UHGV virus genome: UHGV-1451962
Source: a virus
Reading direction: 5' to 3' (one strand)
DNA: 64,000 bases
The position numbers and the translations under genes are program-made. The notes under the pieces are model-generated. The model did not search any database. It worked only from the letters and a program-made list of their open reading frames with translations, and was not told the DNA's origin. Position 1 is the first letter of the stretch. Every line of letters begins with the position of its first letter. Shown here in pieces: positions 5,977 through 55,439 of the stretch.

Positions 5977-5990
5977 TTTGGAGGTACAGT

Positions 5991-8683: not shown

Positions 8684-8685
8684 TT

Positions 8686-8946
8686 TTAAACATCCTCAAT
8701 CACAATATTTTTATTCATATATTCATTATTTGAATTAATATAATTTTTTACCTCTGAAGCAATAGCGTAAGGAGCATGAATTTTAACATTATAAATCTGC
8801 TCTGCTTCAACAATGCTCATAATTTGATCTGCCATATCTTTAGGGTTAGAACTCACTCTAAATTTTTTGCTAGTATTAGTAATAAAAACTTCAGAATTAA
8901 TTACGCCAGGATCATAAACAACAAAAATATCTTTTTTAATACTCAA
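8686..8946 (-). CDS. hypothetical protein
   Basis: 86-aa ORF in same operon. Confidence 0.45.
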   Translation of the reverse strand: MSIKKDIFVVYDPGVINSEVFITNTSKKFRVSSNPKDMADQIMSIVEAEQIYNVKIHAPYAIASEVKNYINSNNEYMNKNIVIEDV

Positions 8947-9293: not shown

Positions 9294-9341
9294 TTAAGAA
9301 CTCCTTAATTTATTTCTTTAAATAATTATAACATATATTAT

Positions 9342-9815
9342 TTATTTTTTCAAGTAAATAATATTTTGATTGCGGGAACCTCGCCATTTTAAAGTAATAT
9401 CTCTTTGCGAATTAATGTAAGGCCCATCCACCAATATATCTAAATAAGGAAAAATTTCTTCTTTTATTTCCTTATTTTTAACTAATTCATCATAATAATA
9501 ACCAGACCATAAATAAATTTTAGTTTCTGGATATTTTTCTTTTACTTGTTGAATAATATATTTAGTAATAGGAATATTTTCTGGACAGAGCGGTTCTCCG
9601 CCCAGAATACTTAAATTTCTATTTATTCCATTTGCTTTTAATGCTTTAAAAAGATTATTTAATGTATCTTTTGTAAATTCTTTACCGCCAGTAAATGACC
9701 AAGTTTCAGGATTTTGACAATCTTTACAATGATTTTTACAACCTTGTACCCAAAAAGAAACATTTACTCCTGGGCCATTTGCAATGTCATTTTCTTTTAT
9801 AGCTGCATATCTCAT
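9342..9815 (-). CDS. nrdG: anaerobic ribonucleotide reductase activating protein (radical SAM)
   Basis: DIANGPGVNVSFWVQGCKNHCKDCQNPETW (CX3CX2C); start at ATG after GGGAGA RBS; encoded near nrdD. Confidence 0.8.
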   Translation of the reverse strand: MRYAAIKENDIANGPGVNVSFWVQGCKNHCKDCQNPETWSFTGGKEFTKDTLNNLFKALKANGINRNLSILGGEPLCPENIPITKYIIQQVKEKYPETKIYLWSGYYYDELVKNKEIKEEIFPYLDILVDGPYINSQRDITLKWRGSRNQNIIYLKK

Positions 9816-10159
9816 TTCATTATCTCCCAAGAACAACAATAATTAGCACAGCAAGGAAGTATTATTATTTTTAAAACTTCATAATTGTTATAGTTTTTAG
9901 ATATTTTAACTTTATAAAATCTATAACCTCTAAAACCTTCTGACATTGGATGCCATATCCAATGTTCATTATTTTCTTGCCATTCTATAAAATTTTTTTG
10001 CATTTTAGCAATAGAAAGATTATTTTTATTTAAATAATTAATTACTTCTTGCTTATCTTCTGTAATATATACACATGTAACAATTTGGTTACTAACTGGA
10101 TATCTTCGGCCTTCTTGTTTATTAAAATAACAAGCATATTTTTTTAATAAATTGTTCAT
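9812..10159 (-). CDS. hypothetical protein
   Basis: 115-aa ORF, stop overlaps nrdG start (ATGA). Confidence 0.45.
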   Translation of the reverse strand: MNNLLKKYACYFNKQEGRRYPVSNQIVTCVYITEDKQEVINYLNKNNLSIAKMQKNFIEWQENNEHWIWHPMSEGFRGYRFYKVKISKNYNNYEVLKIIILPCCANYCCSWEIMK

Positions 10160-10172
10160 ACTCTTCTAACCT

Positions 10173-10523
10173 TTATACTGTGATTGTATGCTCATTGAAC
10201 TCAAGTATAATATTTTTAGAAAAATAGTCTTGTAAATGTTCCATCTCATTTTCTTTCACAATGATACAATCAGCATTATCAGATGCATGTCCCCAAATAT
10301 AGTTACAATTTTTTCCATGTATAGTATAGTAAGCAGAACTAATATTATCTAATTTAACTAAGTAATTGAAAGCATCACTACTTTCTTTATTAGAATCACT
10401 GCCTTCTTTAGTAAGAGCGTAGCCACCCCTTGCTCTTACTTTACCAACAACAGTACCGCATGCCCTATCTACAACATATGTATTTGAAATGCGAACTCTG
10501 TCTCCATAATAAAACTTAGACAT
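10173..10523 (-). CDS. hypothetical protein
   Basis: Start moved to ATG (MSKFYYG...) after AAAAGGAGAAAA RBS. Confidence 0.45.
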   Translation of the reverse strand: MSKFYYGDRVRISNTYVVDRACGTVVGKVRARGGYALTKEGSDSNKESSDAFNYLVKLDNISSAYYTIHGKNCNYIWGHASDNADCIIVKENEMEHLQDYFSKNIILEFNEHTITV

Positions 10524-10717
10524 ATATTTTCTCCTTTTGCTACTGATTATCAAATATTTTTGTCTTATTTGCCATTTTAGAAATCTATTCTTCTCCAGTA
10601 CAAACTTTTGCCTCAGCAGTTAAGCGCTTTGTGCTCGCATCAACTAAAATTTGCTTAAATCTTTTAATCAAAAAAACATACCACACATTTTCCACATAAA
10701 TGTTTGCCTTATATAGT

Positions 10718-40508: not shown

Positions 40509-40524
40509 TTCCTTTCTTAATTTC

Positions 40525-40560
40525 TATATATATTATATAATATTTTTTTAAAAAAATAAA
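40525..40560 (-). promoter_or_regulatory. promoter-leader cassette (TATAAT -10 plus conserved AGAAA(G/T)TAAG..AGG leader)
   Basis: Minus-strand TATAAT at 40532-40537, about 25 nt upstream of start codon; same cassette recurs at many minus-strand gene starts. Confidence 0.4.
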
Positions 40561-41446: not shown

Positions 41447-42724
41447 TTAAACCTCCTGTGCTTCTTCCATATCGGGCTGGGTTTCAGTATCTTTAACTAG
41501 ACCTTCAAGAACTTTAAATTCCCAGGTTTTTTGTTTTAATGCAGTAAAAGTACGTCTATTAGCGATTCTAACCACTACACCTTCTTTAACATGAGTTAAA
41601 CCAATTGGGTCAACAATATCTTCAAAATATTTGTCAATTTTAGCGAGCAAGTCATCAATAGTAGTAAACTCAAAATCCTCAATGATAGGAACACGATTAA
41701 AACCATATTCATTGCACCAAGTAGTAATTTCCTCTGGAGAATATTCATATTCACCATTATGAGAAGTAATTCTATAAATCCACATTGCAGAATGACCAGG
41801 AGTACAACCATAAGAAAAAGTAGTATATTTACCAAACTTTTTCATAAATTTCTTGTCATTGATTTTACTATTATCTACAATTGGCATAATAGTTTCATTT
41901 TCTTTTGCTCCATACCAACCAACTACTTCATAAAAAACCTCCATACCTTCATTAAGATAAGGTTTCAAAGCTTCATGGTGACTAAATCTAAATTTGTCAT
42001 TACCATAATAACCTGCTCCATCAGTGGTAACAACAGTTCTACGAGTACCTAAAACATACTGCAACTTTCTCTTAGGTTTCATGTGAAATAGCTTTCTAAA
42101 CCAAGACATAGGATATTCTGCCCAAGTATATGCACTACGTTGGCTAGTACCATGCATTTTAAGGGTTAGATTAATTTTATCTCCAGGTCTAAAGATTCCA
42201 AGATTATAAGCTAATTGGGCAGTATTAATATGCATGGCAAAATCAGGATACTTAATTCCAGCTGCTTTACGACCTTTATAAGAAGTTTTAGGAGTAGTGC
42301 GAGGAGTAGCCGAAGGTTTAGGAATATATTTATAACAAAATAGCTTATTATTAATTTCAGTGACTTGATCGCCATCTTTCCAATTTTGCTCACCAAAATG
42401 CTCAACAATAGTAGAATAAGAAATAACAATACCAGAAGATTCATTACCTCTTAGCTTAATTGCTCTAATATGAGCATTATTTTCCAAATAACCACCTTGT
42501 GCGGTACCATCTAAATTCTTGCGGAAAAGCTTAAACTCATCACCAAACCAACGCTCAATAGCTCCATCAGTAGGAAGATAAAGAACTAATTCATCTTCCT
42601 TCATATCAGGGCCTACAATAACTCCTTCTCTAAAACAATCTGCTAAATAGAGTCTATCAGAATTAGGGTCTTTTCTTACATTTTCAATTTTAGTTACTAA
42701 ACCATAGTACGCCATAAATGTCAA
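41447..42724 (-). CDS. RNA ligase-like nucleotidyltransferase (Rnl2/Rnl5-like with N-terminal extension)
   Basis: Candidate motif I KMHGTS (KxHG, as in T4 Rnl2 KIHG), downstream FYEVVGWYG and LKQK motifs; 425 aa. Confidence 0.45.
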   Translation of the reverse strand: MTFMAYYGLVTKIENVRKDPNSDRLYLADCFREGVIVGPDMKEDELVLYLPTDGAIERWFGDEFKLFRKNLDGTAQGGYLENNAHIRAIKLRGNESSGIVISYSTIVEHFGEQNWKDGDQVTEINNKLFCYKYIPKPSATPRTTPKTSYKGRKAAGIKYPDFAMHINTAQLAYNLGIFRPGDKINLTLKMHGTSQRSAYTWAEYPMSWFRKLFHMKPKRKLQYVLGTRRTVVTTDGAGYYGNDKFRFSHHEALKPYLNEGMEVFYEVVGWYGAKENETIMPIVDNSKINDKKFMKKFGKYTTFSYGCTPGHSAMWIYRITSHNGEYEYSPEEITTWCNEYGFNRVPIIEDFEFTTIDDLLAKIDKYFEDIVDPIGLTHVKEGVVVRIANRRTFTALKQKTWEFKVLEGLVKDTETQPDMEEAQEV

Positions 42725-42734
42725 ACTCCTTTAT

Positions 42735-43004
42735 TTAAATTTCATAACCTTGCACCTCCATAACTGCTAAAGATTTATAGACCATTTTACCACTTTTACT
42801 TTTAGCTTTTGTTACCATACCCATTTCAATCAAATGCCCAAGAATCCTAGCCATTTTTTGAGTGGAAACACCTGTTAATTGAATACTATTCTTTTTAATT
42901 TCATCTATTGTCATGGCTTCTGCTGATTGAGCAAGAATAACCGCAGTTTCACCTTGCCAAATTGCAGTCTGATCTTTACTATATTTGCTTTTTCTATAAG
43001 TCAT
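42735..43004 (-). CDS. hypothetical protein
   Basis: Start moved to ATG (MTYRKSK...) after GAGGAG RBS. Confidence 0.45.
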   Translation of the reverse strand: MTYRKSKYSKDQTAIWQGETAVILAQSAEAMTIDEIKKNSIQLTGVSTQKMARILGHLIEMGMVTKAKSKSGKMVYKSLAVMEVQGYEI

Positions 43005-43017
43005 AAAATTCAACTCC

Positions 43018-43848
43018 TCAATTTTTAATAAACCATTCTTTGCCAAAGTAAGTAGTATGATGAGTAATACATGAAGTTAATTTTTTTTCAATTGCAGAAA
43101 TGGTAGTTCGGTTCTTTTCTTTAACCATTAAATTATAAATTGCTTCAACAGCAGTTTTTTTATCAAAAAAATAACCACTACAATTTGTTTTTTTACAGTT
43201 AGAGTTTTTAAAATATACTACTCCTTGCGGGACATCTTTTAAAGCTGTTTTCTTTTTAATAATTTTTTTATCTTCTTCTTCAATTTCAATAAAATCCATA
43301 ATTGGAAAAAGAAAATTTCTAGCTGCGTTCCAATTAAAATCTTTTTGAGTTTCCACAGCAATATTATATAACATAATAGCATCATCTAAACTATTATGAT
43401 TCTGTAAATTATCATATTTATTTAAATAAGAATAAAATTTAGTTAGTTTAATATTGTCGATTTTTAATTTTTTACAAATTTTTCTTGAAAAATCTCTAAT
43501 AGAACCACTCATATATCCTAAAATAGAACGTGCTTTTAAAGAGTTAGTTCTTTTAAATGTATGTCGAATATATTCTACATCACAACTACCCCAAGTATAA
43601 AATTCAGGAAAATTATCCTCCAATTTATTAAAAACCCAATCATATAACTTTTCAAAAACTTCTTCGGAATTTGGAGCGTTATTTAATTTTTCTTTTGTTA
43701 AACCAGTTAATTCAATAAGAGCGTTAGTAATTTTTCCTTCTTTAGGTTTTACAAGAGAATAAAAAGTTTTTCCATCTTCTCTTACAACACCTACTGAAAT
43801 AATTTCCTCAACATATTTTGCAGCTTCAAAGTCAATATAGTATTTCAT
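43018..43848 (-). CDS. DnaQ-like 3'-5' exonuclease (DEDDh)
   Basis: Exo I YIDFEA (DxE) near N-terminus and exo III HNSLDDAIMLYN. Confidence 0.6.
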   Translation of the reverse strand: MKYYIDFEAAKYVEEIISVGVVREDGKTFYSLVKPKEGKITNALIELTGLTKEKLNNAPNSEEVFEKLYDWVFNKLEDNFPEFYTWGSCDVEYIRHTFKRTNSLKARSILGYMSGSIRDFSRKICKKLKIDNIKLTKFYSYLNKYDNLQNHNSLDDAIMLYNIAVETQKDFNWNAARNFLFPIMDFIEIEEEDKKIIKKKTALKDVPQGVVYFKNSNCKKTNCSGYFFDKKTAVEAIYNLMVKEKNRTTISAIEKKLTSCITHHTTYFGKEWFIKN

Positions 43849-43927
43849 AAAACTTCAACCTCTTTCTTATTTATTTATTCCTTAACTTTCTATATATATT
43901 ATATAATATTTTTTTAAAAAAATAAAT

Positions 43928-43957
43928 TAAGGACAAAACTTTTAAAAGTTTTGTCCT
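43928..43957 (-). terminator. rho-independent terminator
   Basis: AAGGACAAAACTTTT-AAA-AGTTTTGTCCTT stem downstream of gene 43980-44498. Confidence 0.55.
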
Positions 43958-43979
43958 TAAATTTAAAATAAATTTCTTT

Positions 43980-44498
43980 TTAACTAGAACATTCATTTAC
44001 AGAATCTTCGATAGCATTTTTATTACTTATTGCTTCAATACAGTAATCCAATGCCTTTTCAGTAAAAACACCAATTCCAATCATTGCTTTTACTTGTTCT
44101 TTACTGAGATAACGCGCAGTCATTTTCTCATTTACTTTCATTTTTTTGCTGCCATTATAGAAACAATGGTAGCCATAGTCATATCGTGTAGCATAGTCAG
44201 AGTTATTATCAAAAATCCTTTCGCCAGGAGTAAAAATAACCTTATAAAAACGATTCATTTCTTCTCCTGTAAATACTTGACGGCTGATGCTTGAGTTGTA
44301 TAAAAATGTGATAGTTTCATCAGGATTATTTCGATCGGGCATTTTGCGGGCACCCATAGCTAAAGTGCTTCCACCAGTATGACAATTACATACAATCAAC
44401 AATTCTTTATCAGCTTTGATGGCATCTTCTAAATCTTTGCTTTTGTAAAACGCGATACGTCCATTGGGGAAAATTCGTGCTTCATATTTATTAGTCAT
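43980..44498 (-). CDS. hypothetical protein
   Basis: 172-aa ORF; LIVCNCHTGGSTLAMG segment, no firm family assignment. Confidence 0.45.
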   Translation of the reverse strand: MTNKYEARIFPNGRIAFYKSKDLEDAIKADKELLIVCNCHTGGSTLAMGARKMPDRNNPDETITFLYNSSISRQVFTGEEMNRFYKVIFTPGERIFDNNSDYATRYDYGYHCFYNGSKKMKVNEKMTARYLSKEQVKAMIGIGVFTEKALDYCIEAISNKNAIEDSVNECSS

Positions 44499-44500
44499 TA

Positions 44501-44830
44501 TTATTTCTCCCTTAAAGTAATTGTATAAATTTTTCCATCTACTTTTAGTATTTCATAATCTTTATATAATTCATTAACTGAAACAGAATCATTTATAATA
44601 ACATCATAACGACAAGGAGAAGAATCATCAGATTTTAAATAAAAAGCAGCTAATAAACCAATCGTTACTCCCCATATAAGAGGTACTAAATTTCCTTCAG
44701 GTGTCATATCAAACCAAAGCATTTTAACTAAAAAGAAAAACAATATACCAGTTAAAATACTAAGAATAATAATTAAACTTGCATCCAAAGTAAAATCATA
44801 TTGTTTTAAAACTGTAACGCCATCAATCAT
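44501..44830 (-). CDS. small membrane protein
   Basis: 109 aa with two hydrophobic helices. Confidence 0.4.
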   Translation of the reverse strand: MIDGVTVLKQYDFTLDASLIIILSILTGILFFFLVKMLWFDMTPEGNLVPLIWGVTIGLLAAFYLKSDDSSPCRYDVIINDSVSVNELYKDYEILKVDGKIYTITLREK

Positions 44831-45569
44831 TAATTAAATCCTCTAAATTATAAATATTTTCAAATAACATATATCTACCATCATAGTAATCTGTATTTGC
44901 GTGAAAATGTCCCCAGAACCAATTATTCCAAGAAAACTTATCTTTTAAATCATTCATCCAAATTTCCATAGTATTGTCAATAGTAGATTGATCAATTCCA
45001 GGAAGAAATAAAGCAGTAGGACGCCAATCAAAAGGACAAGTATGAGATAGAACTAAATCATAATGATGATTAATCACTTTATTGTTAATATCTAACATCT
45101 CTTGCTGTGTTAATTGTTCATCAGGAAACCAACCAGTCCAATCATCGGTACGATTCAAAGTAGCCTGCATTAATCTATAATGTTTATCAACCGAATAAGC
45201 ACCACCAAGAACAATAGCAGAATGACCATTAAAGTAGTAAGTATTTCCGTCAATCAAATATTTAAGGTTAGGAAAATCCGGTTGAGTATAAATCCAACCT
45301 TGAATTTCTGCATCCCAAATTTCTTGAATATTAGGTAAATTTTTAGGATGCTCTTCATGGTTTCCCCGCACACAATAAATTGAATATCCTAAATCATTTA
45401 CTCTTTTCTTCCACTTTTGCTCTTTTTTATCTAACCAAAAATTAAATCCTGCATCTCCAAGAATAATAAGAGAAGAATTTTTAGGAGAGCAAGAATATTG
45501 TTCAATCATTTGACAAATACGTTGATAATTTTTACCGTGCGTATCTCCAGTAATAAAGTACTGTTTCAC
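44823..45569 (-). CDS. metallophosphoesterase
   Basis: Motifs GDTHG, GDAGFN, GNHE; 248 aa. Confidence 0.7.
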   Translation of the reverse strand: MKQYFITGDTHGKNYQRICQMIEQYSCSPKNSSLIILGDAGFNFWLDKKEQKWKKRVNDLGYSIYCVRGNHEEHPKNLPNIQEIWDAEIQGWIYTQPDFPNLKYLIDGNTYYFNGHSAIVLGGAYSVDKHYRLMQATLNRTDDWTGWFPDEQLTQQEMLDINNKVINHHYDLVLSHTCPFDWRPTALFLPGIDQSTIDNTMEIWMNDLKDKFSWNNWFWGHFHANTDYYDGRYMLFENIYNLEDLIND

Positions 45570-45581
45570 TAGAATTCCTCC

Positions 45582-46478
45582 TTAAAAAGTAGTAGGTTGA
45601 AAATATGAGCATAAATAACTTTCAATGATATTTAATAATACTTCATCCATGTAATTAGAAATTTCTACATTAATAGAATAATTTTTTCTTTCATTACTTA
45701 ATCGCTCATACTGATTCTTTACCCATTCTTGCTGATCTTCAACAAAAATTTTTACAAAACTTAAATCTTCATATCCATTTTTATAAAAGATTAATCTTTC
45801 TCTCCAAAAACTATCATAACACTTTAAACAAATAGAATAAGAATCATTCAAGTAACAACTATAAAATAATCTAAGTCTATTTAAATGGCTAAAGCACTTT
45901 GGGTCATAACCAAATTTTTCTACAACTTCTTTTCGACTCTCTGTTGGTTTAAACATGCGATTAATCTCATTTTGCATCATGCCAAGCATACTATTTAAAG
46001 CTCTAAACTCATCATAATGAGCAATTTCATCTCTTTTATAAATTAATTTATTCCAAAAAGATTGATATTTTGGATTTACATAATAGTAATCAGTGTATAA
46101 AATTTCTAAAAAATTAATATTCTGTTTGCGGAATTCATTCATATAAAGCCGCACATCTTTAAAATCAATGTGTTCATTATTATCTAAAACATGAGTATAA
46201 CTCACTGGTTTTTTATTAAAAGCCAAATCTTCAATAGTAGGAATAATAAGACATTTAGTATCAACATCCGAATTTGCTGTATCAAGACCATAATTAGCGG
46301 CACCTTGATAAAAAATACCAAGAATATTTTCTTCAGAAAAAATTTTTAAAGCTTCTTGGTAATGCTCCATTACTCTTGTTTGAATTTCAATATAAGAATG
46401 ATAATTGGTAGATTTTTCCTCTTGCTTTTGAATATAAATAGTTTTAATAATATTATATAAATTTTGATAATTATTCAT
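45582..46478 (-). CDS. Pol-beta-superfamily nucleotidyltransferase
   Basis: Minimal NTase signature GAANYGLDTANSDVDT (G[SA]x9-13 DxD); 298 aa. Confidence 0.5.
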   Translation of the reverse strand: MNNYQNLYNIIKTIYIQKQEEKSTNYHSYIEIQTRVMEHYQEALKIFSEENILGIFYQGAANYGLDTANSDVDTKCLIIPTIEDLAFNKKPVSYTHVLDNNEHIDFKDVRLYMNEFRKQNINFLEILYTDYYYVNPKYQSFWNKLIYKRDEIAHYDEFRALNSMLGMMQNEINRMFKPTESRKEVVEKFGYDPKCFSHLNRLRLFYSCYLNDSYSICLKCYDSFWRERLIFYKNGYEDLSFVKIFVEDQQEWVKNQYERLSNERKNYSINVEISNYMDEVLLNIIESYLCSYFQPTTF

Positions 46479-46479
46479 A

Positions 46480-46824
46480 TTAAATCTCCTCCCAATGATT
46501 ATGCTGAATAATTCTTCTCATATTTTGAACTCCCACAGGATTTTGGGAATGAAGATGAAATTTACAAGAAAGAGGCCAAGCAAAAGCATTTTGAACTCTC
46601 TCTAACCAATTTAAAATTTCAATATAATCGCCACCATCAGAAGCAAAATCTCCAGCATCATAGTCGAGAGATATTAAATCAAGAAAAATATCATCAGTTA
46701 ATCCAATTAAAAAACCATTTTGAGCAAAAGAAATCATAGTTTTCGCTTGTTCGACAGATTTAGCCCAAATATAACCAGTAGGCGCAGGTCGAATATCATC
46801 CACCCATAATTTCATAAACATCAA
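46480..46824 (-). CDS. hypothetical protein
   Basis: 114-aa ORF, 2-nt gap to upstream gene. Confidence 0.4.
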   Translation of the reverse strand: MMFMKLWVDDIRPAPTGYIWAKSVEQAKTMISFAQNGFLIGLTDDIFLDLISLDYDAGDFASDGGDYIEILNWLERVQNAFAWPLSCKFHLHSQNPVGVQNMRRIIQHNHWEEI

Positions 46825-46874
46825 TTCCTTTCTTAATTTCTATATATTATATAATAATTTTTTAAAAAAATAAA

Positions 46875-46897
46875 AAGGGAGTCAAAATGACTCCCTT
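46875..46897 (-). terminator. rho-independent terminator
   Basis: AAGGGAGTC-AAAA-TGACTCCCTT stem downstream of gene 46902-47963. Confidence 0.55.
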
Positions 46898-46901
46898 AAA
46901 A

Positions 46902-47963
46902 TTATTTTATAATATTTTTAAAACGCTCTAACATAACTGCCATTTGCTCTCTAGTTAAATAAGCTTTGGGTAAAAGATAGCCTTTATCATCACCTTGAAG
47001 AATACCTGTACTAACAGCCCATTCAACACTTGCTTTAGCCCAATTAGAAATATCATTTTTATCTTTAAATTTATCTAATGTATTCATATTTGTCCTCCCA
47101 ATATTATAATATTTATCAATATCAATAGAATTTGGTTCAGGTAAAATTACCGCACCAAATCCTGTTTTTGGATCAATTCCCTTATCGCCTATATCTTTAC
47201 AATTATCTTTGAAGAATTGAATCATTCCTTCTCTTGTTAGAGGTAATCCTTTTTTATCAATAAAGAAATCATCTACCAGACAGCTCATTCCACATAACCA
47301 AGGTGTAGAAAAAGAAGTGCCAGAATTGGAATAAGTTGCTGCGTCTGGTTTTGTAGCTTGCGGATTTAAATAAATCATACTAGGCGCAGAAAAGTCTACA
47401 TAATTACTAATACTAGAATAATAAGCAGGATTTACTGTACCATCTACCATTAAAGTATAAGCAGCTACGCCGATTACTTCTTCAATTTCCATAATTGGAT
47501 TATATTTTTTAGAAGAATCATTTCCTGCGCTCCAAAAGGGTTTAAAATTAGGATGTTTAATATACCAATTTTTTAAATCTTCAAAAAATTTGGTATGTCT
47601 ACTACAATTTAAAGAGGTAAACATATTGGTAATATTATATTTTTCAATAATTTCTACTGATTCATTAAAAAATTTAGAGTTATAATTATCTCCACCGCCA
47701 TAACTGCCATCAATGGAATAAAGCATAAATAAATGAGCTTTTGGAGCTACTTGGAAAAATGTTGCCGCGGTATTTATTGGATGTTCATTTGACATTTGTT
47801 TATCTTTTAAACAATTTCTTACTAAATTATCTGGATTATATCTATTAATATCCCAGGTTTCTCCACTTGCAGCATTTACTCTTTCTCCAAAATAGCCCGC
47901 ATTATGGAAACGAGTTACACCTGTAAAGTTTCTATGTCTATTATCATCATTTAATAATATCAT
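46902..47963 (-). CDS. subtilisin-like (S8) serine peptidase-like protein with C-terminal SLH-like domain
   Basis: SAGNDS and SNSGTSFSTPWLCGM resemble subtilisin Asn and Ser motifs; C-terminal NWAKASVEWAVSTGILQGDDKGYLLPKAYLTREQMAVML resembles SLH. Confidence 0.45.
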   Translation of the reverse strand: MILLNDDNRHRNFTGVTRFHNAGYFGERVNAASGETWDINRYNPDNLVRNCLKDKQMSNEHPINTAATFFQVAPKAHLFMLYSIDGSYGGGDNYNSKFFNESVEIIEKYNITNMFTSLNCSRHTKFFEDLKNWYIKHPNFKPFWSAGNDSSKKYNPIMEIEEVIGVAAYTLMVDGTVNPAYYSSISNYVDFSAPSMIYLNPQATKPDAATYSNSGTSFSTPWLCGMSCLVDDFFIDKKGLPLTREGMIQFFKDNCKDIGDKGIDPKTGFGAVILPEPNSIDIDKYYNIGRTNMNTLDKFKDKNDISNWAKASVEWAVSTGILQGDDKGYLLPKAYLTREQMAVMLERFKNIIK

Positions 47964-47984
47964 TTTAATCCTCCTTATAAAAAA

Positions 47985-48010
47985 AGAGAGGTAAAATTAC
48001 CTCTCTCTTA
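47985..48010 (-). terminator. rho-independent terminator
   Basis: AGAGAGGTAA-AATT-ACCTCTCTCT stem downstream of gene 48020-49543. Confidence 0.5.
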
Positions 48011-48019
48011 AAATACTAT

Positions 48020-49543
48020 TTACTTAATTACTTCATATCTTTTGCTATTCAGCTTTTCCAATACCAAGTCAAGACCAGTCTTGCCAGTCATTAACATTTC
48101 ATAAGTTACCGCAGAGTAACCAGAAATAAAAGTAATACCATCTTTCATCTTCATGGGAATATTATCATTTCGAGCATCAACATTCCAAAAAATCAAGTGC
48201 GGAGTAGTGTAACCATGAGAGTTCCAAACCTGCATAATCTTTTCCATTTCAGACTTGTATTCATCCCTATTATAGTAGCCAGTGCAATAATCAAATTCCA
48301 TATCACTAATGATTACAATGTTTTTAGGCATTTCTTCATTAGGAATATTATATTTAATAGCATTACTTAATAGCAAATCAAAAATACTTTGAATATTAGT
48401 GTTCTCACAGAGATTCTTTTGATAAATTCGACGTACTTTATCAACAAAATCAATACCTTCAATAGGCACCAATCTTGCAGTCCGAGAAAAAGTAATATAA
48501 TGTCCATACCAGGGAGAATTGGGATTACACTTCTCAGCACAATACATACCAAGAGAAATAGCTACATCAATAGGCGCGATAGTTTTCTCACTACCATAAA
48601 AACCACACATAGAACTAGAAGTATCAACGACAGCAACACCGTCAAAAACAGCATTATTAAAATAATCCTTTAGATTATCCCAATACTTATTGAGTGCAGC
48701 TCTCTCCACATCAGTTCCATTAAAATTTCCTCTATAATAAGGAAATTTAGAAACAACAGCATAAACTACATCCGCGGGATTCAAAGTATCAGCATTGACC
48801 TTAGTATTAGAATCCTTTACAAACTCTTCATAAGTTACCTTATTAGACTTTTCTCTTTCAATATCGTGCTTTGCAAAAGCATTGCGATACTTTAGACCTG
48901 CCTTAGAAGGAATCTTATCAAATTCAATTTCATCCCAACGGTTTTCACTCATCAGTCTTTCCAAAACTCTAATTCTTTCACGAAGAATAGAGAGAGTTTT
49001 GCGATACTGCTTAGGAGACATATTAAAAGCCATTCTAGTTTTAGTTCCAAGCATACGAGATTCCACAGAAGAAGTGTTCTCAGACTTCAACCACTTAGCC
49101 AAAAGAGAGGGAGTTTTACATTGAACATCAAGAGCAAGTTGATGATACATAGTCTTAAAAGCATCTGCCTCAAGTGGAGTATCAACAAAAGCATACAAAT
49201 CATCCCAGCGACCGTACTCAGGAACATACTTCAGATTTCTGCGCATTTCCTCAGTATGGTTAATGGCCAACCAAGAAGTTACAACCTTAAAAAATCTGCG
49301 TTCTCCCTGTCCACCGCGTACGTCTCGCAAATAAAAGAGACACTTCAAAGCATAAGAAATATCTTCTTCAAAAGCCTTCTTAAAAAGAAAAATACAATCA
49401 TCATCTGAGCGATTTCGATAAGCGCCACCAAGAGCAAACAAATCCATAATTCCATTCATAGTAGAATTATAAGTCAAACCACCATTCTCAGTGATAGAAT
49501 GAGTATTCTTTTCCTTCAAAATATTAAGCATCTTATTTTCCAT
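48020..49543 (-). CDS. TROVE/DUF2828-like protein with C-terminal vWA (MIDAS DxSxS) domain; Ro60-like architecture
   Basis: 507 aa; N-terminal TENGGLTYNSTMNGIMDLFALGG; VAVVDTSSSM MIDAS-like motif around residue 305; AAAAGGAGAAAG RBS; family call is from recalled patterns only. Confidence 0.4.
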   Translation of the reverse strand: MENKMLNILKEKNTHSITENGGLTYNSTMNGIMDLFALGGAYRNRSDDDCIFLFKKAFEEDISYALKCLFYLRDVRGGQGERRFFKVVTSWLAINHTEEMRRNLKYVPEYGRWDDLYAFVDTPLEADAFKTMYHQLALDVQCKTPSLLAKWLKSENTSSVESRMLGTKTRMAFNMSPKQYRKTLSILRERIRVLERLMSENRWDEIEFDKIPSKAGLKYRNAFAKHDIEREKSNKVTYEEFVKDSNTKVNADTLNPADVVYAVVSKFPYYRGNFNGTDVERAALNKYWDNLKDYFNNAVFDGVAVVDTSSSMCGFYGSEKTIAPIDVAISLGMYCAEKCNPNSPWYGHYITFSRTARLVPIEGIDFVDKVRRIYQKNLCENTNIQSIFDLLLSNAIKYNIPNEEMPKNIVIISDMEFDYCTGYYNRDEYKSEMEKIMQVWNSHGYTTPHLIFWNVDARNDNIPMKMKDGITFISGYSAVTYEMLMTGKTGLDLVLEKLNSKRYEVIK

Positions 49544-49598: not shown

Positions 49599-49682
49599 TG
49601 GTACCAGAAGCGGGACTCGAACCCGCACGCATAAAGCGAAAGTTTTTGAGACTTCTTTGTCTACCAATTCCAACATTCTGGC
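49599..49682 (-). tRNA. tRNA-Leu (anticodon CAA)
   Basis: Cloverleaf by eye: acceptor GCCAGAA/TTCTGGT, anticodon loop CTCAAAA, long variable arm, T-loop TTCGAGT, encoded CCA. Confidence 0.8.
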
Positions 49683-50059
49683 AAATAAGGTTTTCCCTTG
49701 TAAGGAGGATAACCTAAAACCCAAGCTAGCTTTAGTCCTTTTTTAATCAGAGGTTGACCATTCTCATTAGCATTTCTCAGAAGCCTTGATTTTCTACTTC
49801 TCGTAGTAGAAGGAGTGGAGATGAGTAATGCTCCGCCGTCTCTCCTATATAACACCTTGCATTTTAATGACGCAAAGAAACATTTTACTATGCGGCTATC
49901 AACCTGTTTACCCATAGCTAACGACTTAGGTCGCCCTTATGTCTGGTCACGCAGTATCGTCGCTTCAACAGTTGCCAGACTAATTCTCCCGATACCCGGA
50001 TACCCAGTTCAGCATTATCTGGGGTACTCATTTATTTTACGTCTGTATGATAAGACTAA
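49683..50059 (-). ncRNA. candidate structured non-coding RNA (unassigned 377-nt GC-elevated spacer in tRNA island)
   Basis: No tRNA fold found; GC clearly above flanks; only low-plausibility ORFs that overlap tRNAs; next to TROVE/vWA gene. Confidence 0.25.
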
Positions 50060-50135
50060 TGGTGGCTCGCCTGGGATTTGAACCCAGCACATCTTGCTTA
50101 AAAGGCAAGTGTTCTACCTAATGAACTAGCGAACC
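50060..50135 (-). tRNA. tRNA-Lys (anticodon TTT)
   Basis: Acceptor GGTTCGC/GCGAGCC, anticodon loop CTTTTAA, T-arm CTGGG-TTCAAAT-CCCAG, encoded CCA. Confidence 0.85.
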
Positions 50136-50137
50136 AT

Positions 50138-50213
50138 TGGAGCTAGCGAAAAGACTTGAACTTTTAACCTGCGGTTTACAAGGCCGCTGCACTACCTATT
50201 GTGCTACACTAGC
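50138..50213 (-). tRNA. tRNA-Thr (anticodon TGT)
   Basis: Acceptor GCTAGTG/CGCTAGC, anticodon loop CTTGTAA, T-loop TTCAAGT, encoded CCA; 2-nt gap to tRNA-Lys. Confidence 0.75.
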
Positions 50214-50273
50214 AAATACAAGATACTTTTTTTTGATTAAAAGTCAAAAAATAAATTGCTATGAGTATCTTTA

Positions 50274-50347
50274 TGGAGCAAGTAACGGGAATCAAACCCG
50301 CATCGCTGGAGTGGAAGTCCAGAGTTCTATCATTAAACTATACCTGC
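50274..50347 (-). tRNA. tRNA-Gly (anticodon TCC)
   Basis: Acceptor GCAGGTA/TACTTGC, anticodon stem-loop CTGGA-CTTCCAC-TCCAG, T-loop TTTGATT, encoded CCA. Confidence 0.75.
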
Positions 50348-50408
50348 TTATTGTTGATAGTTTTAGTAAAAACAGTATCACCACGTGAAGGTAACTATCT
50401 TGATACCG

Positions 50409-50497
50409 CGGGGCAAACTGGATTTGAACCAGTGAAACTATTGCTAGTTTGCTTGTTTTCAAGACAAGTGCAATAAGCCAAACTCTGCCATTGCCCC
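50409..50497 (-). tRNA. tRNA-Ser (anticodon TGA)
   Basis: Acceptor GGGGCAA/TTGCCCC, anticodon loop CTTGAAA, long variable arm, T-arm ACTGG-TTCAAAT-CCAGT; CCA not encoded. Confidence 0.8.
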
Positions 50498-50682
50498 ATA
50501 TTAAGGAAGGTGGAGGTAGGGCCTCACCTATAGCTGCTCCTCAATTATTCCCCTACTTTTCTGACTCTACACCCGCAGGCACGATACGTATTATACATCC
50601 GTTCAAAGTTTATTGTCATGTCAGCAAGACAAGATGCCTTTCACATCAGCTATTTCCTTTTGTTATCTATTATAATTCTGCT

Positions 50683-50759
50683 TGGTACGCCTGAAGGGAC
50701 TCGAACCCCTGGCTTACTGCTTAGAAGACAGTTACTCTATCCAGTTGAGTTACAGACGC
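50683..50759 (-). tRNA. tRNA-Arg (anticodon TCT)
   Basis: Acceptor GCGTCTG/CAGGCGT, D-arm ACTC-AACTGGATA-GAGT, anticodon loop CTTCTAA, T-loop TTCGAGT, encoded CCA. Confidence 0.85.
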
Positions 50760-50824
50760 GTATCAGTAAACTCAAGTTTATTGTTATCTTTAAAACTAAT
50801 AGTAAAGAGTATCAATTTTAAAGA

Positions 50825-50910
50825 TGGTGTGGGCGATGGGACTCGAACCCACAAGCTAGATTAGCAGCGCATTTTAAGTGCGATATGTTTTCCTATTTCA
50901 TCACGCCCAC
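50825..50910 (-). tRNA. tRNA-Leu (anticodon TAA)
   Basis: Acceptor GTGGGCG/CGCCCAC, anticodon loop CTTAAAA, long variable arm, T-arm GTGGG-TTCGAGT-CCCAT, encoded CCA. Confidence 0.8.
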
Positions 50911-51276: not shown

Positions 51277-51361
51277 ATTAATTTATTTTGTTCAAGAAAT
51301 TTTTATTACTCTTTCCTTAACTTTCTATATATATTATAATATATTTTTATTAAATTTTCAA

Positions 51362-52009
51362 TTATTGTCCACTTGTACAAGAAGGAGGATCGGCACACGA
51401 AGTGCTTGAATTTCTTTGACAACCAGAATTACATCTTCCACAATTACCTCTATTACATTTTTCACAACCTCTATCGCAGCTTTCACAAGTATCACAAGTA
51501 ACATCACAATTTGCATTACATTTATTACATTGATCTTTTTTATATTTTAATGTATTTGCCGCAGTCTCTAAACCAGAAAAATAAGAACCTAAAAGATCAT
51601 CTCCTGGAGAAACATTAGATGCAGTACCACTATGGCCGCCTAAACCATTTAATGCTCTACTAACTGCATTAAAATCTCTTGCTCTCATAGAAGATTGAGT
51701 AATTCCACCACTACTGATACCAGGACTTCCACCATTTTTTTTAGTACCTTTAGCATAAGCATTACAAATAAATTTATAAATACTATTCCATGTACTTAAT
51801 GTAAAAAATTGTTGTCCTCTTGCAGTACAAGCTCCCCAACTAAAACTACCTACCCTTTGATGGCTATCTTCACAAAAAGATTGACAATCATTACAGCCGG
51901 AGCATTTATCACCTTTCATACAACCAGAATCACATTTTTCACAAGAATCACATGATTCGCAACTATTGCAAGATTGACATCCTGAATTACATTTTTCACA
52001 ACCCAATAG
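51362..52009 (-). CDS. Cys-rich repeat protein, putative substrate of adjacent radical-SAM/SPASM enzyme
   Basis: About 214 aa from TTG after AAGGTGGTG SD; N-terminal 45 and C-terminal 55 residues are C-x2-C/C-x3-C repeats with Cys followed by D/E/N/Q in most positions; start overlaps rSAM stop by 14 nt. Confidence 0.65.
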   Translation of the reverse strand, partial: LLGCEKCNSGCQSCNSCESCDSCEKCDSGCMKGDKCSGCNDCQSFCEDSHQRVGSFSWGACTARGQQFFTLSTWNSIYKFICNAYAKGTKKNGGSPGISSGGITQSSMRARDFNAVSRALNGLGGHSGTASNVSPGDDLLGSYFSGLETAANTLKYKKDQCNKCNANCDVTCDTCESCDRGCEKCNRGNCGRCNSGCQRNSSTSCADPPSCTSGQ

Positions 52010-53240
52010 ATTCACCACCTTCTAATTTATAATCTAAATATTCTTTAAAAAATTGATTTTTCTCTTGCTCGACAAGAATTTTCATCATTAAAATTCCACC
52101 TTCAAGAAGAATTTGATTGTAAATACAATCAATAGAAGGTCTAATAAAAAAGTCATTAAACATATCACGCGAAACAGAAGGACAAACTTTATGAATACAA
52201 GCTTGTCGTAGCTTACAATTACTACATAATTCTTTTTTAGAACTAATTATAGTTATTGCTTCATTATAATCAGTCAGCATTTTCTTATGTTTTTCTATAT
52301 TGATACCATTAAAAATATCACCAATATAAAAATAATCATTTTCATCTCTTGAATCTTGCTCTTGACAACCATAAATTTTACCATCATAAGCAATAGAAAT
52401 AGAACCAGTTCCTAAACCACATCTGCGAACTCCGCGAGAAGGGGATAGATCAGAAAAATTTTTAGTATAAGTTTGAAGGTCTATATCAATAATATCATCA
52501 AAAGCACTATCTAAATTAGAATAAAGAATGGGAATTTTTCCTTCAATGTAATTCATAGTCGTATAAGTAATAATTTTTCCAATTTCTTCTCTTAAAATTT
52601 TAATATTTTCTTCTGACCATTCTTCTCTAGCATTTGGACACATAAAAATTTGTCTAAAACCACACTTTTCTGCGAACAAAAATGATTCAAACATTTTATC
52701 TATTGTTGGCTGGTAAAGAGTGGAGCGAAAAGTAGTATTAGGAAAATATTTAAGAATAATAGGAATATTCTTTTCAACTAAATCAAAACTACTTAAATTT
52801 GTATCTCGACAAGGTCGATTATAATCCTGTACTTCTTTTATTCCATCAATAGAAAGAAGAAGTTTAATATTATTATCATAACAAAATTTAACTCTTTCTT
52901 CATTTAGAAGAGTTCCATTTGTCGTCATATCAAAATGAAAAGTATCAGGATATTTCTCTTTAGTATATTTAACAATAGGAACAATAATCTGTTCCCATAA
53001 AAGAGTCGGCTCACCGCCAAAAAATGTTACTTCATTCTTTTGATTTTCTCTTCCAGTAAGCTCTTTGTATTTTACTAAATTTTTGGCTAAAAAATCTATC
53101 GCATTTTTAGCCATTTCTACATCCATATAATGCGGCTTTTGATGTACAAAGCAATATCTACATTGTAGATTACAATTATCTGTTAAATTTAAACACGCAT
53201 TAATAGGATACTTAAAAGTTTCATCATAATTATAACTCAT
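51996..53240 (-). CDS. radical SAM enzyme with C-terminal SPASM-like Cys cluster (peptide/protein maturase-like)
   Basis: CNLQCRYC (CX3CX2C) at residues 16-23, FFGGEPTL motif, C-terminal CSNCKLRQACIHKVCPS...IDC auxiliary-cluster cysteines; AGGAGGGAG RBS. Confidence 0.8.
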   Translation of the reverse strand: MSYNYDETFKYPINACLNLTDNCNLQCRYCFVHQKPHYMDVEMAKNAIDFLAKNLVKYKELTGRENQKNEVTFFGGEPTLLWEQIIVPIVKYTKEKYPDTFHFDMTTNGTLLNEERVKFCYDNNIKLLLSIDGIKEVQDYNRPCRDTNLSSFDLVEKNIPIILKYFPNTTFRSTLYQPTIDKMFESFLFAEKCGFRQIFMCPNAREEWSEENIKILREEIGKIITYTTMNYIEGKIPILYSNLDSAFDDIIDIDLQTYTKNFSDLSPSRGVRRCGLGTGSISIAYDGKIYGCQEQDSRDENDYFYIGDIFNGINIEKHKKMLTDYNEAITIISSKKELCSNCKLRQACIHKVCPSVSRDMFNDFFIRPSIDCIYNQILLEGGILMMKILVEQEKNQFFKEYLDYKLEGGESIGL

Positions 53241-53264
53241 AATTTTTCTGAAACTCCCTCCTAT

Positions 53265-53603
53265 TTACATATTATCTTCAATCGCTGCAAGGATATCCAT
53301 GCAAGCATCATATTCGCCCATGCTTTTATTGAAATAATCCTTCATTTTATTCATAAACTTTTCTGCTTCTTCAACCTTAGAATTTGCATTTGCAAATTTC
53401 TCTTTTGCAGTTTTAAGTCTCTTAGCTGCGATTTTCGCATCACATCGAGCAATAGCAAGGCCAATTCCCTTTTCCAAGTCAAAAACATCTCCACCCTTAA
53501 TATCACATCGTGCTACACCTCTAACAGGTTGCTTAGCAAAAGTGGATTCCGCAATCACCATATCAGTGTAATTACTAAAAATCTTATACCGACCATACTT
53601 CAT
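53265..53603 (-). CDS. hypothetical protein, first gene of rSAM operon
   Basis: Start moved to ATG (MKYGRYKIF...) after AAGGAGAT RBS; upstream part of annotated ORF reads through the promoter cassette; 112 aa. Confidence 0.5.
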   Translation of the reverse strand: MKYGRYKIFSNYTDMVIAESTFAKQPVRGVARCDIKGGDVFDLEKGIGLAIARCDAKIAAKRLKTAKEKFANANSKVEEAEKFMNKMKDYFNKSMGEYDACMDILAAIEDNM

Positions 53604-53677
53604 ATTTATTATCTCCTTTTTTAATTTTCTATATATATTATAATATAAATTTTTAAAAAATTCCAATAATAAAAAAA

Positions 53678-53704
53678 TGGGTAGAAGATTAAACCTTCTA
53701 CCCA
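53678..53704 (-). terminator. rho-independent terminator
   Basis: TGGGTAGAAG-ATTAAAC-CTTCTACCCA stem with T-run on minus strand, downstream of tail-fibre gene 53710-54180. Confidence 0.55.
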
Positions 53705-53709
53705 TTAAA

Positions 53710-54180
53710 TTAATTTAATAAATCTGAAATTCTGCCCCACGTTGATTCAGCACTAGAATCTGCCCAAGTGCCATCGCCACGAAGAAATTTAGAAATATCA
53801 GTTTTAGTAGGTGCTGGAACTAAACCTTTAGTACCGTTTGTAGAGGAGGTCGCTCCAGTCATAGTATCCACATTATTTTGAACCACTGTCCAATCACTTG
53901 CTTTGTAGTTTGAGCTATAATCACTAACACAAATTATCATATCTCCTGCTTCTATTTTACCAATAGAAGTAATTGTAAAATCCGCATTTGCTTTATAAGT
54001 CCAACCAATTTTATAATTTTTTAACCCAGTGATTCCGGCAGCACTTGATATTACACCTTTGAAAACTAATGAAGAAGCAACTGCGGTTTGCAATGTAGAA
54101 ACCGCAGCTCTAATTTCTTCATCTTTAAGGTAGTAAATGGCGCCACCGACATTGACTTTAGAAATCAACTTGTTTGCCAT
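53710..54180 (-). CDS. tail fibre-like protein
   Basis: C-terminal GTKGLVPAPTKTDISKFLRGDGTWA motif typical of phage tail fibre/collar proteins. Confidence 0.6.
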   Translation of the reverse strand: MANKLISKVNVGGAIYYLKDEEIRAAVSTLQTAVASSLVFKGVISSAAGITGLKNYKIGWTYKANADFTITSIGKIEAGDMIICVSDYSSNYKASDWTVVQNNVDTMTGATSSTNGTKGLVPAPTKTDISKFLRGDGTWADSSAESTWGRISDLLN

Positions 54181-54206
54181 TTACTCACCATCCTTTTAAA
54201 AATTAA

Positions 54207-55418
54207 TTACTGGACAGTAACATCCTTGGCGGCAACTACAATATCATCAACATCCAATTCCATAGTAGTACCAATAAACTTAGTCGTAGAGGTATCAACA
54301 GTAGCCTTATCGTAATTAACACCAGAAACCACAGAGGTTTTCTCACCAGCAAAAGTAGCAGTAATATCAGCAGAAGCACCAGTGAAGGAAGCTGCAAACT
54401 TATCGCCAGTGAACACAGGAGCAGAAGCCTCTGCACTCTTAACACCAGTCATAACAGTGGTGCCTTTAGTGGCCAATTCAGGAAGTGTACCTGCATAGAA
54501 AGTACCTTCAGTGTAAGAAGCCTTTGCGCCCTGAATAAAGGTAGGCAGAGTGTTAGCAGTAAAGCTAAAGCTCAAAGTTTCAGAAGCATCATCAACTTTA
54601 GCGCTCCAAATAGCTTGAGAACCAGCAGTAAAGATGTCATCACCGTTAGGAGTAAAGGTGTCAGCATCCTTGGTAGGTAAAGTACCAACAGAAGTAACCT
54701 TCTTAATGCTGTCAGTATCAGGAGTAATAGTCACAGTAGGAGCAGAAACGCTACCAGAAATCTGAGTACCATTATTAGCATCCTTAGTAATGCTAACAGA
54801 ACCAGCAGCAGTCACACTACCAGTAACATTACCAGAAGGAGTATAATCATTTTTAGTTAAAGTAGCAGCAGTAGAAGTCTGGGTTAAACCAACCTCAATA
54901 CTACCAGCAGAAGTACCAGTAGCCTTAACACCAGTAATAGTTTGACCAGCAACAATACCAGTAGCAGAATTCTTATCAGCTAAAGTGCCAAGACCTAAAT
55001 CAGTCTTTAAAGTATCCAAAGAGAAAATACCGGAAAGATCCTGAGTACCAATCTTAAAGGTCTTCAAAGCATACAAGGTCTCATCACCAAGCTCATGCCA
55101 ATTATTATTAGCATAGACATACTCTTTAACATCAACAATAACAACATCGCCATCTTTAGCAGTCAGAGGTAAAGTTTCCTCAACACCAACGAAGTGCATA
55201 GCACTAGTCAAATTGGCAATAGCGGCTTGAACCTGAGCGCCAGTAACCAAGCCCTGCTCTTCAGCAGAAACACTAGCGGCAACATCTTTCTGAGCAGCCT
55301 CACCAAGAGTCTTTAATAGATCACGAACTTCAGCGTCCTTTAAGTAATAGGTCTTATTATCAATAGTCAACTTAGAAATAACAGGAATATTCACAGGGTT
55401 GAAAATTTTTGTAGCCAT
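54207..55418 (-). CDS. tail fibre/structural protein
   Basis: 403 aa, Thr/Ala/Gly/Ser-rich; N-terminus (KTYYLKDAEVR) parallels that of the 53710-54180 protein. Confidence 0.55.
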   Translation of the reverse strand: MATKIFNPVNIPVISKLTIDNKTYYLKDAEVRDLLKTLGEAAQKDVAASVSAEEQGLVTGAQVQAAIANLTSAMHFVGVEETLPLTAKDGDVVIVDVKEYVYANNNWHELGDETLYALKTFKIGTQDLSGIFSLDTLKTDLGLGTLADKNSATGIVAGQTITGVKATGTSAGSIEVGLTQTSTAATLTKNDYTPSGNVTGSVTAAGSVSITKDANNGTQISGSVSAPTVTITPDTDSIKKVTSVGTLPTKDADTFTPNGDDIFTAGSQAIWSAKVDDASETLSFSFTANTLPTFIQGAKASYTEGTFYAGTLPELATKGTTVMTGVKSAEASAPVFTGDKFAASFTGASADITATFAGEKTSVVSGVNYDKATVDTSTTKFIGTTMELDVDDIVVAAKDVTVQ

Positions 55419-55439
55419 AAATTTTATTTCCTCCTATAA

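Follow-up and report, generated by a model that had tools for sequence, protein, structure and literature searches.

The 64,000-nucleotide (nt) stretch of the virus genome UHGV-1451962 analyzed here (the window) encodes on its minus strand a radical S-adenosylmethionine (radical-SAM) enzyme with a SPASM-like C-terminal region, directly followed by a protein of 214 amino acids (aa) that carries Cys-repeat tracts at both ends. The two genes are kept adjacent in related phages, and several of the tract-bearing partner proteins in those phages show tail-protein features. In our interpretation, which is based on sequence comparison, the enzyme would act without a leader peptide and introduce numerous thioether cross-links into virion proteins that are associated with the tails of phages of anaerobes; we give this interpretation about an even chance. 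In a bolder form, a serious possibility toward which we do not quite lean, the leader-independent radical-SAM enzyme of phages of strictly anaerobic gut bacteria would stitch poly-Cys tracts of tail proteins (~10 to >100 Cys) into poly-thioether ladders that serve as a redox-proof substitute for disulfides, which would represent the first radical enzymatic cross-linking of virus structural proteins and the largest and most modified radical-SAM substrates known.

The enzyme gene (51996..53240, minus strand) starts at ATG 53240, ends at TGA 51998-51996 and encodes 414 aa. A preliminary interpretation made from the letters of the window (the sequence-only reading) had reported a CX3CX2C cluster, a GGEP motif and a SPASM-like Cys region in this open reading frame (ORF). 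These features hold up: the motifs CNLQCRYC (C23, C27 and C30) and FFGGEP (in the stretch FFGGEPTLL) are invariant across four orthologues, as are seven Cys residues in the C-terminal part (C274, C292, C339, C342, C348, C353 and C372). In Pfam, the enzyme matches Radical_SAM (E 3.4e-15) and Fer4_12 (E 1.9e-7), and SPASM at a sub-threshold level (15.5 bits; cut-off, 21.5). A profile of the four orthologues has CteB (5wgg; E 2.6e-38) as its best match in the PDB, with query residues 14-375 aligned to CteB residues 98-440; the alignment spans the catalytic core and the SPASM domain including the seven-Cys region, and excludes the N-terminal peptide-binding domain of CteB. The second-best PDB family is anSME (4k37; E 4e-19).

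Among NCBIfam models, PapB ranks first (NF047865; score 177.6, cut-off 340), followed by CcpM (124.6, cut-off 500), nif11, SCIFF (maturase ScfB, TIGR03974; 114.8, cut-off 425), an ScfB-related orphan family and QhpD (TIGR03906; 92.3, cut-off 453) maturases, with anSME (TIGR03942; 71.9, cut-off 349) far lower. PapB is the top family also for the four first-position enzyme relatives tested (170-219 bits). The affinity to thioether-forming systems proposed earlier is thereby corroborated, as the top matches are the named families or their close relatives (PapB, CcpM, SCIFF, QhpD and CteB). Because the CX3CX2C cluster starts at residue 23 and the alignments begin past the RiPP recognition element (RRE; RiPP, ribosomally synthesized peptide with post-translational modifications), i.e., at CteB residue 98, with the SCIFF, nif11, CcpM and QhpD models being matched from positions 79-99, the enzyme lacks the leader-binding RRE. 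On these alignments, it is best described as an unclassified, RRE-less relative of thioether-forming SPASM maturases. Its clade comprises 459 clusters at E<=1e-20, all without a name, and several of them are on contigs of 105-228 kb.

The Cys-repeat gene (51362..52006, minus strand) is best read from TTG 52006, since a Shine-Dalgarno-like AAGGTGG is located 8 nt upstream and since the product would then begin with MGCEKC, similarly to the N-termini of homologues (MSGCQ.. and MGCSGC..). This start supports the previously suggested length of 214 aa and sets the overlap with the enzyme gene, previously given as 14 nt, at 11 nt (TTG 52006 versus TGA 51998-51996). An alternative start at GTG 52018 gives a 218-aa product, the numbering of which is used below. 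The N-terminal tract (51872..52000, minus strand) has 13 Cys at a spacing of 3-4, begins at residue 3 of the 214-aa protein and closes with a family-invariant C-x3-Q-x-F-C. The central helical domain (residues 50-163; 51530..51871, minus strand) is homologous to tail-module proteins in other phages, and is followed by the C-terminal tract (51377..51529, minus strand), which also has 13 Cys, includes a nearly invariant Q-C-x-x-C-N-x-x-C-D-V-T-C core and contains weak tandem repeats of 9-21 nt at the DNA level. The absence of a leader from this protein, already suspected, is reinforced by the enzyme being without a leader-binding domain.

The residue directly after Cys (Cys+1) is strongly biased. 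As the sequence-only reading had pointed out, nearly every Cys is followed by D, E, N or Q: this holds for 22 of the 28 Cys in the 218-aa ORF (background 0.247 at non-Cys residues; binomial p = 3e-9), and the same four residues occupy position i-1 in 4/28 and position i+2 in 3/28 cases. Family-wide, they follow 1871 of 2728 Cys, and 101 of 113 in one giant member, with Asn at 29%, Gln at 21%, Asp at 14% and Glu at 11% of Cys+1 positions.

The Cys-repeat protein belongs to no family in Pfam, NCBIfam or PHROG scans, and 117 family members compared with NCBIfam gave nothing above noise, one of them reaching TIGR04117 at E 0.05. It has 28 homologues at E<=1e-3 in a 90%-clustered collection, and when 1.84 billion representatives were searched with a profile, 360 clusters (50% identity) were recovered at E<=1e-3, 187 of them at E<=1e-10, mostly of 170-260 aa and none named; the ORF is therefore not a chance one. 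In the family alignment, a tract with Cys every 3-4 residues and the invariant C-x3-Q-x-F-C is followed by Q-x-V-G-S-F-S-F, the ~110-residue central domain and a second tract that opens with Q-C-D-x-C-N-x-x-C-D-V-T-C. C42, Q46 and C49 do not vary among 30 sequences, C164, C167, N168, C171, C175, C178 and C181 are conserved in >=90% of family sequences, and the number of repeats in the tracts differs among members through insertions and deletions. An AlphaFold model based on the 117-sequence alignment predicts a small, helical central domain (residues ~51-160; pLDDT 82-96), which has no fold match, and gives both tracts pLDDT values <50. Such low-confidence tracts beside a confident domain would fit folding that requires modification, a bound metal or oligomerization.

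Scanning IMG/VR for motifs of the enzyme alignment yielded 36 loci. The synteny check proposed with the original idea shows a Cys-repeat ORF downstream at every viral locus where the radical-SAM protein reaches >=248 bits with the clade profile, with one partial exception (L012); this ORF overlaps the enzyme gene, starts a few nt later, or sits behind a second radical-SAM gene (L034-L036). Below 150 bits, no Cys-repeat ORF accompanies the radical-SAM gene, save a short Cys-rich ORF at one locus (L038). The pairing is kept under three genetic codes, i.e., the standard code, TAG=Gln (L006 and L116) and TGA=Trp (L003), these examples being metagenomic contigs, and the genes flanking the pair vary by locus (topoisomerase, HSP20, tRNAs, or lysis and SLH genes). 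Distances of the enzyme and of the partner central domain co-vary (Mantel r = 0.67, p = 0.0006, 10 pairs).

Among 50,697 phage records, in which the locus finds relatives through the enzyme only, the best enzyme relative is in Phass-1 (31.7% identity). In this TAG=Gln phage (OQ749652, code 15; L001, 4959-6674), an in-frame TAG splits the radical-SAM gene into two annotated coding sequences, and a 174-aa Cys-rich homologue, unannotated in GenBank, starts 3 nt past the enzyme stop; the paper on this phage makes no mention of radical-SAM or Cys-rich genes (PMC10607447). More broadly, full-text literature searches, with subscription journals outside their coverage, turned up no account of this radical-SAM/Cys-repeat pairing. 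The most extreme partners are encoded by two tandem enzyme-partner pairs at 5021-10903 of the TAG=Gln contig L116 (ENA ERZ28653857): these proteins have the tract-domain-tract arrangement of the window protein and comprise 515 aa with 113 Cys (22%, in long CNS/CNT triplet runs) and 539 aa with 96 Cys. In another TAG=Gln contig (L006, 287-7794), the region 5' of the pair includes two more Pfam Radical_SAM genes, a third CX3CX2C ORF and further ORFs, one of which resembles, by eye, a glycosyltransferase of family 8 and another a U32 peptidase.

Some apparent relatives were set aside. Radical-SAM genes of Campylobacter phages, which share PHROG 1802 with the enzyme, are without a Cys-rich neighbor and are therefore assigned to a different subgroup. 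A match in MT835472, recorded as 'Bacteriophage sp.' (L002), is an ordinary bacterial locus with a SCIFF peptide, ScfB and SecDF, and that record is probably, as a whole or in this part, of bacterial and not phage origin. The idea that recoded stops in the pair mark late expression was also abandoned, as the neighboring dUTPase and RuvC genes are recoded as well. When 100,044 bacterial species genomes were scanned with the enzyme motifs, only distant radical-SAM proteins were found (<=36% identity; Novosphingobium, Acidobacteria and others); the Novosphingobium and Acidobacteria hits, which are not close relatives, might be of the QhpD type, although this is a guess.

The partner proteins include a window type (170-260 aa), an FN3 type (~300 aa), a Page_15-like type (720-790 aa) and a 375-aa protein with 55 Cys (L032). 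In the FN3 type, a Cys tract is joined to an FN3 domain (E 4.6e-12), and the C-terminal domain shows homology to the window central domain (hhalign 97%). At one locus (L023), the gene order is tape measure, tail proteins, radical-SAM enzyme, Cys/FN3 protein and a 1000-aa tail fiber; at another (L042), the pair is flanked by genes for the major head protein and a tail fiber. In the Page_15-like type, a Cys tract of ~170 residues precedes a domain with 28% identity, over 93% of its length, to Page_15 of Bacillus phage Page, a RefSeq 'virion structural protein' located between tail spike and tail fiber. Page_15 itself, from a phage of an aerobic host, has the same large domain without the Cys tract, and no radical-SAM gene flanks it in the region fetched. 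The partner at locus L011 has the family domain (hhalign 95.9%), a Cys/Gly tract and then Peptidase_S74 (35 bits; cut-off, 22). This 'chaperone of endosialidase' domain is a hallmark of trimeric tail fibers and spikes.

The Cys-repeat tract is the only feature common to the main partner architectures, and is for this reason the likely target of the enzyme. The window protein itself includes no FN3, S74 or Page_15-like domain, and its central domain is homologous to those of two relatives (hhalign 97% and 96%). The earlier suggestion of a virion or adhesion component thus gains comparative support from the FN3, Peptidase_S74 and Page_15-like relatives, but the neighbors of the pair in the window are only weakly fiber-like. 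For the C-terminus of the L012 partner, an assignment as an NlpC/P60-like lysin domain was considered and found no support in Pfam or the PDB. The N-terminal motif PDLLRVEPFLGL of Page_15 (L115, 3743-5527) resembles the DELIxIPxFL that opens the FN3, Page_15-like and 375-aa types; because of this resemblance, DELIxIPxFL is probably part of the structural protein rather than an enzyme leader.

We propose that the enzyme and the Cys-repeat protein constitute an enzyme-substrate pair. The catalytic core would be of the CteB/PapB type, with one SAM-cleaving cluster and a seven-Cys SPASM domain. In CteB, an open site on one auxiliary cluster binds a substrate Cys, and the phage enzyme is assumed to bind its substrate Cys at such a site in the same way. 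A 5'-deoxyadenosyl radical would then, as is established for CteB and PapB, remove a hydrogen from the side chain of a residue close to each Cys, leading to thioether formation. The likely acceptor is the conserved D/E/N/Q at Cys+1, which corresponds to Cys+4 or +5 of the preceding Cys, so that C-x-x-C-[D/E/N/Q] might be read in two ways, with the acceptor at +1 or as C-X3-acceptor. Repetition of this reaction along both tracts would yield a ladder of redox-insensitive cross-links. As the enzyme has no RRE and the substrate no leader, recognition would have to rest with the tract itself, the C-x3-Q-x-F-C motif or the central helical domain. Most likely, the product would be a tail-associated virion component, in which thioethers may replace disulfides that are unreliable in the reducing cytoplasm and gut habitat of a strict anaerobe.

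Several known systems resemble this pair. PapB introduces six links at CXXXD motifs, can use acceptors located from i+1 to i+7 on the C-terminal side of Cys, and is restricted to acidic or carboxylate acceptors (PMC12373016). PapB/PapA (freyrasin, Paenibacillus polymyxa) is similar to the phage pair in being the top curated family, in the radical-SAM and SPASM core, and in the iterative linking of a repeated-Cys substrate; in addition, the window CxxC[D/E/N/Q] read as C-X3-acceptor is comparable to the six CXXXD motifs of PapA. PapB, however, uses an RRE and a leader, whereas the phage-encoded enzyme is RRE-less and scores below 340, and PapA is a short peptide, whereas the phage partner has 214 aa, tracts at both ends and mostly Asn/Gln as candidate acceptors. 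CteB/CteA and ScfB/SCIFF of Clostridia share with the phage pair the best-matching solved structure, Clostridia-like anaerobic hosts, and polar C-[QE]-x-x-C repeats, which SCIFF cores such as CGECQTSCQSACKTSC (L002) resemble. The N-terminal peptide-binding domain of CteB is missing in the phage enzyme, the ScfB score is well below its cut-off, and SCIFF peptides have ~45 aa with six Cys, compared with 24-113 Cys in 170-790 aa for phage partners.

QhpD is a radical-SAM/SPASM enzyme that forms Cys-to-Asp/Glu thioethers in QhpC, a protein subunit and not a leader-bearing peptide. It therefore provides a precedent for a protein substrate, and TIGR03906 is among the enzyme matches; unlike in that system, no qhp operon or dehydrogenase subunit was found among the ~20 window ORFs scanned, and QhpC has three thioethers versus potentially dozens in the phage partner. 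The RiPPs with Cys repeats in NCBIfam (CXXX-repeat TIGR04115/TIGR04117, Cys-every-fifth CefB, and CcpM) likewise combine a SPASM maturase and a periodic-Cys target, but the enzyme scores are far from the cut-offs (82.7 versus 350, and 124.6 versus 500) and the targets are bacterial peptides. Like the phage enzyme, anSME is an RRE-less SPASM enzyme acting on full-length proteins. The sequence-only reading had listed an anSME-type enzyme among the outcomes that would overturn its proposal; the anSME score is low (71.9 versus 349), the partner contains no C/S-x-P/A-x-R target motif, the SPASM region has seven rather than eight Cys and no sulfatase is present. By curated criteria, the pair stands outside the PapB, SCIFF, CcpM, QhpD, anSME and CXXX-repeat families, although its likely chemistry most resembles theirs, and it is rated as a relative of ranthipeptide systems that is phage-borne, protein-scale and independent of both leader and RRE.

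The tract pattern itself invites a different explanation. Period-3 CxxCxxC runs include the three Cys at the core of ferredoxin motifs, CxxC pairs typically ligate Zn, and AlphaFold, which models the chain without cofactors, leaves the tracts unfolded; the repeats might thus be metal or iron-sulfur (Fe-S) sites of the metallothionein, zinc-ribbon or polyferredoxin kind, with the enzyme acting elsewhere or using its partner as a cluster or metal donor. We consider this unlikely. It leaves unexplained why D/E/N/Q is found at Cys+1 (69-89%) without enrichment at flanking positions, and the tracts occur only beside a PapB/CteB-like enzyme, across many architectures. Moreover, the aerobe-phage homologue Page_15 is without both tract and enzyme, and inter-Cys residues are small or polar as in SCIFF cores, with no hydrophobic residues or Pro of the ferredoxin type.

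If the tracts are indeed modified, the reaction might still be another radical one, such as formation of sactionine (alpha-thioether), conversion of Cys to formylglycine or dehydroalanine, epimerization, or formation of C-C or C-O cross-links. SPASM enzymes catalyze many reactions, every curated family score is below its cut-off, amides dominate Cys+1, and PapB itself blurs the boundary between sactipeptides and ranthipeptides (PMC12373016). The closest families, however, are thioether formers with Cys-rich substrates, the anSME score is low, the partner has no C/S-x-P/A-x-R motif, and the seven SPASM Cys, not eight, are as in CteB; a different reaction is unlikely in our estimate. A giant RiPP-like precursor, in which the central domain would be a leader or follower and the modified tracts would be freed at lysis, whole or proteolysed, as ranthipeptide-like antimicrobials or signals, is also unlikely: although the enzyme family is otherwise RiPP-dedicated, the conserved central domain could stand in for a leader and the window unit lies outside an identified structural module, no gene for a protease, an exporter or immunity is present in the unit, tracts of relatives sit in large tail-module proteins (FN3, S74 and Page_15-like), and a range from few to >100 Cys per tract suits a spacer or rod over a defined bioactive peptide.

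With thioether cross-linking of the tracts thus remaining our preferred interpretation, the organization of the window unit (all on the minus strand) can be described. A mechanical ORF listing gives ORFs of 414 aa (51996-53240), 218 aa from GTG 52018 (51362-52018) and 146 aa (53265-53705). The last is an over-extension of a 112-aa gene (53265..53603; ATG 53603 with AAGGAGA upstream), as it crosses an intrinsic terminator and a promoter-like site. The terminator, a strong one (53676..53706; 14-bp stem with 5 GC pairs and a 3-nt loop, with TTTTTATTAT directly after the stem-loop), comes after the 156-aa ORF, ends the block of fiber-like genes and forms the upstream boundary of the unit. The promoter-like site (53626..53666) has TTGGAA-18-TATAAT (53666-53637; 10/12 consensus matches) and includes an exact copy of the motif TATTATAATATATATAGAAA. 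A second such site (51322..51361; TTGAAA-17-TATAAT), also with an exact TATTATAATATATATAGAAA copy, lies directly 3' of the Cys-rich stop, forms the downstream boundary and drives a tRNA array. Being bounded by the terminator and the two promoter-like sites, the three genes form one unit.

In the window, whose base composition is ~29% G+C and part of which is identical to the 137,669-bp IMG/VR contig IMGVR_UViG_3300045988_145614, TATTATAATATATATAGAAA has eight copies on the minus strand (40521-40540, 43887-43906, 46837-46856, 51322-51341, 53626-53645, 59493-59512, 60843-60862 and 61360-61379), compared with 0.29 expected from shuffles, and it overlaps an extended -10 element. This motif probably represents a phage-specific promoter class common to the radical-SAM unit, the tRNA arrays and the RNA-repair genes. 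The three-gene operon suggested earlier is therefore supported as regards the ATG 53603 start and the single unit, but linkage of the 112-aa gene to the pair is confined to the lineage of the window: homologues of this gene occur 5' of the radical-SAM gene in L006-L008 and L117/L118 only. The 112-aa protein has no Pfam or NCBIfam match, and PHROG 9910 is reached at E 0.0035; a role as a general third component or trans-acting RRE was rejected because of this restriction to one lineage and the absence of a PqqD-like match in Pfam and NCBIfam.

Upstream of the terminator, five minus-strand ORFs (410, 121, 168, 403 and 156 aa; 53710..57569) have weak N-terminal signatures of tail fibers or tail spikes. 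The 410-aa ORF matches a tail-spike PHROG (E 4e-5) and Mtd_N (21.1 bits, below the 26.3 cut-off), and shares with the 168-aa ORF the N-terminal motif RRG..GE..GDG.T.Y/FN.L.Y. The unit was first described as lying beside tail-fiber genes; these signatures agree with that description, but are weak, and the terminator separates the two transcription units.

Radical-SAM enzymes are oxygen-sensitive. The window encodes the anaerobic ribonucleotide reductase NrdD, and ORF 9345-9842, which has a CX3CX2C motif, is read as its putative NrdG-like activase; the host is probably a strict anaerobe. For Phass-1, a Clostridia host has been suggested (PMC10607447).

The window also includes 17 tRNA genes in two arrays (49599-50910 and 58135-60251), among them tRNA-Ile(tat). 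For the tRNA at 58844-58919, ARAGORN predicts a four-base 'tgaa' anticodon, and Rfam confirms a tRNA (48 bits). No suppressor tRNA is present in these arrays, consistent with the standard-code ORFs of the window. Adjoining a tRNA array, the region 41447-49543 has the look of an RNA-repair module: it encodes a nucleotidyltransferase, an RNA ligase and a DUF2828/DUF7788 protein that matches PHROG 850 ('RNA-binding protein', E 8e-113); that the DUF2828/DUF7788 protein is Ro60/TROVE-like is a guess. The same DUF2828 gene is present 3' of the radical-SAM pair in L117. Between two tRNA genes, beside the putative Ro-like gene, a 377-nt stretch (49683-50059) contains no tRNA, no convincing ORF and no Rfam match, and its folding energy is ordinary (z = -0.41).

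Several observations weigh against the proposed cross-linking of a virion protein. All NCBIfam scores of the enzyme are far below the curated cut-offs, so that the reaction type is an extrapolation. At Cys+1, Asn and Gln together amount to 50% family-wide versus 25% for Asp and Glu, which contrasts with the acidic or carboxylate acceptors of PapB, and CxxCxxC runs could instead bind metals or Fe-S clusters. The partner at L012 has the homologous domain but few Cys. The Cys-rich family is found in no cultured phage among the 50,697 phage records; megablast and tblastn searches of these records with the locus and with the central domain gave zero matches, which is a weak point. Neither a close or prophage copy nor a host was detected with the enzyme motifs among the 100,044 bacterial species genomes. 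As regards location, no identified structural module contains the window unit: on one side it has weakly identified fiber-like ORFs, which belong to a separate transcription unit, and on the other a tRNA/RNA-repair/replication region, and its promoter motif is used also by these non-structural genes. The recoded stops of the pair are uninformative in this respect, as they occur also in the dUTPase and RuvC neighbors.

If the proposed activity is correct, ranthipeptide-type chemistry would extend from short, leader-guided peptides to whole proteins, and substrates would be recognized without a leader or an RRE. For the production of thioether-stapled proteins, an enzyme that handles long repeat tracts without an RRE could also be a useful tool. 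For the phages themselves, enzymatic radical cross-linking would join the known ways in which viruses stabilize their particles, and would account for a gene pair that recurs, unannotated, in large gut phages.

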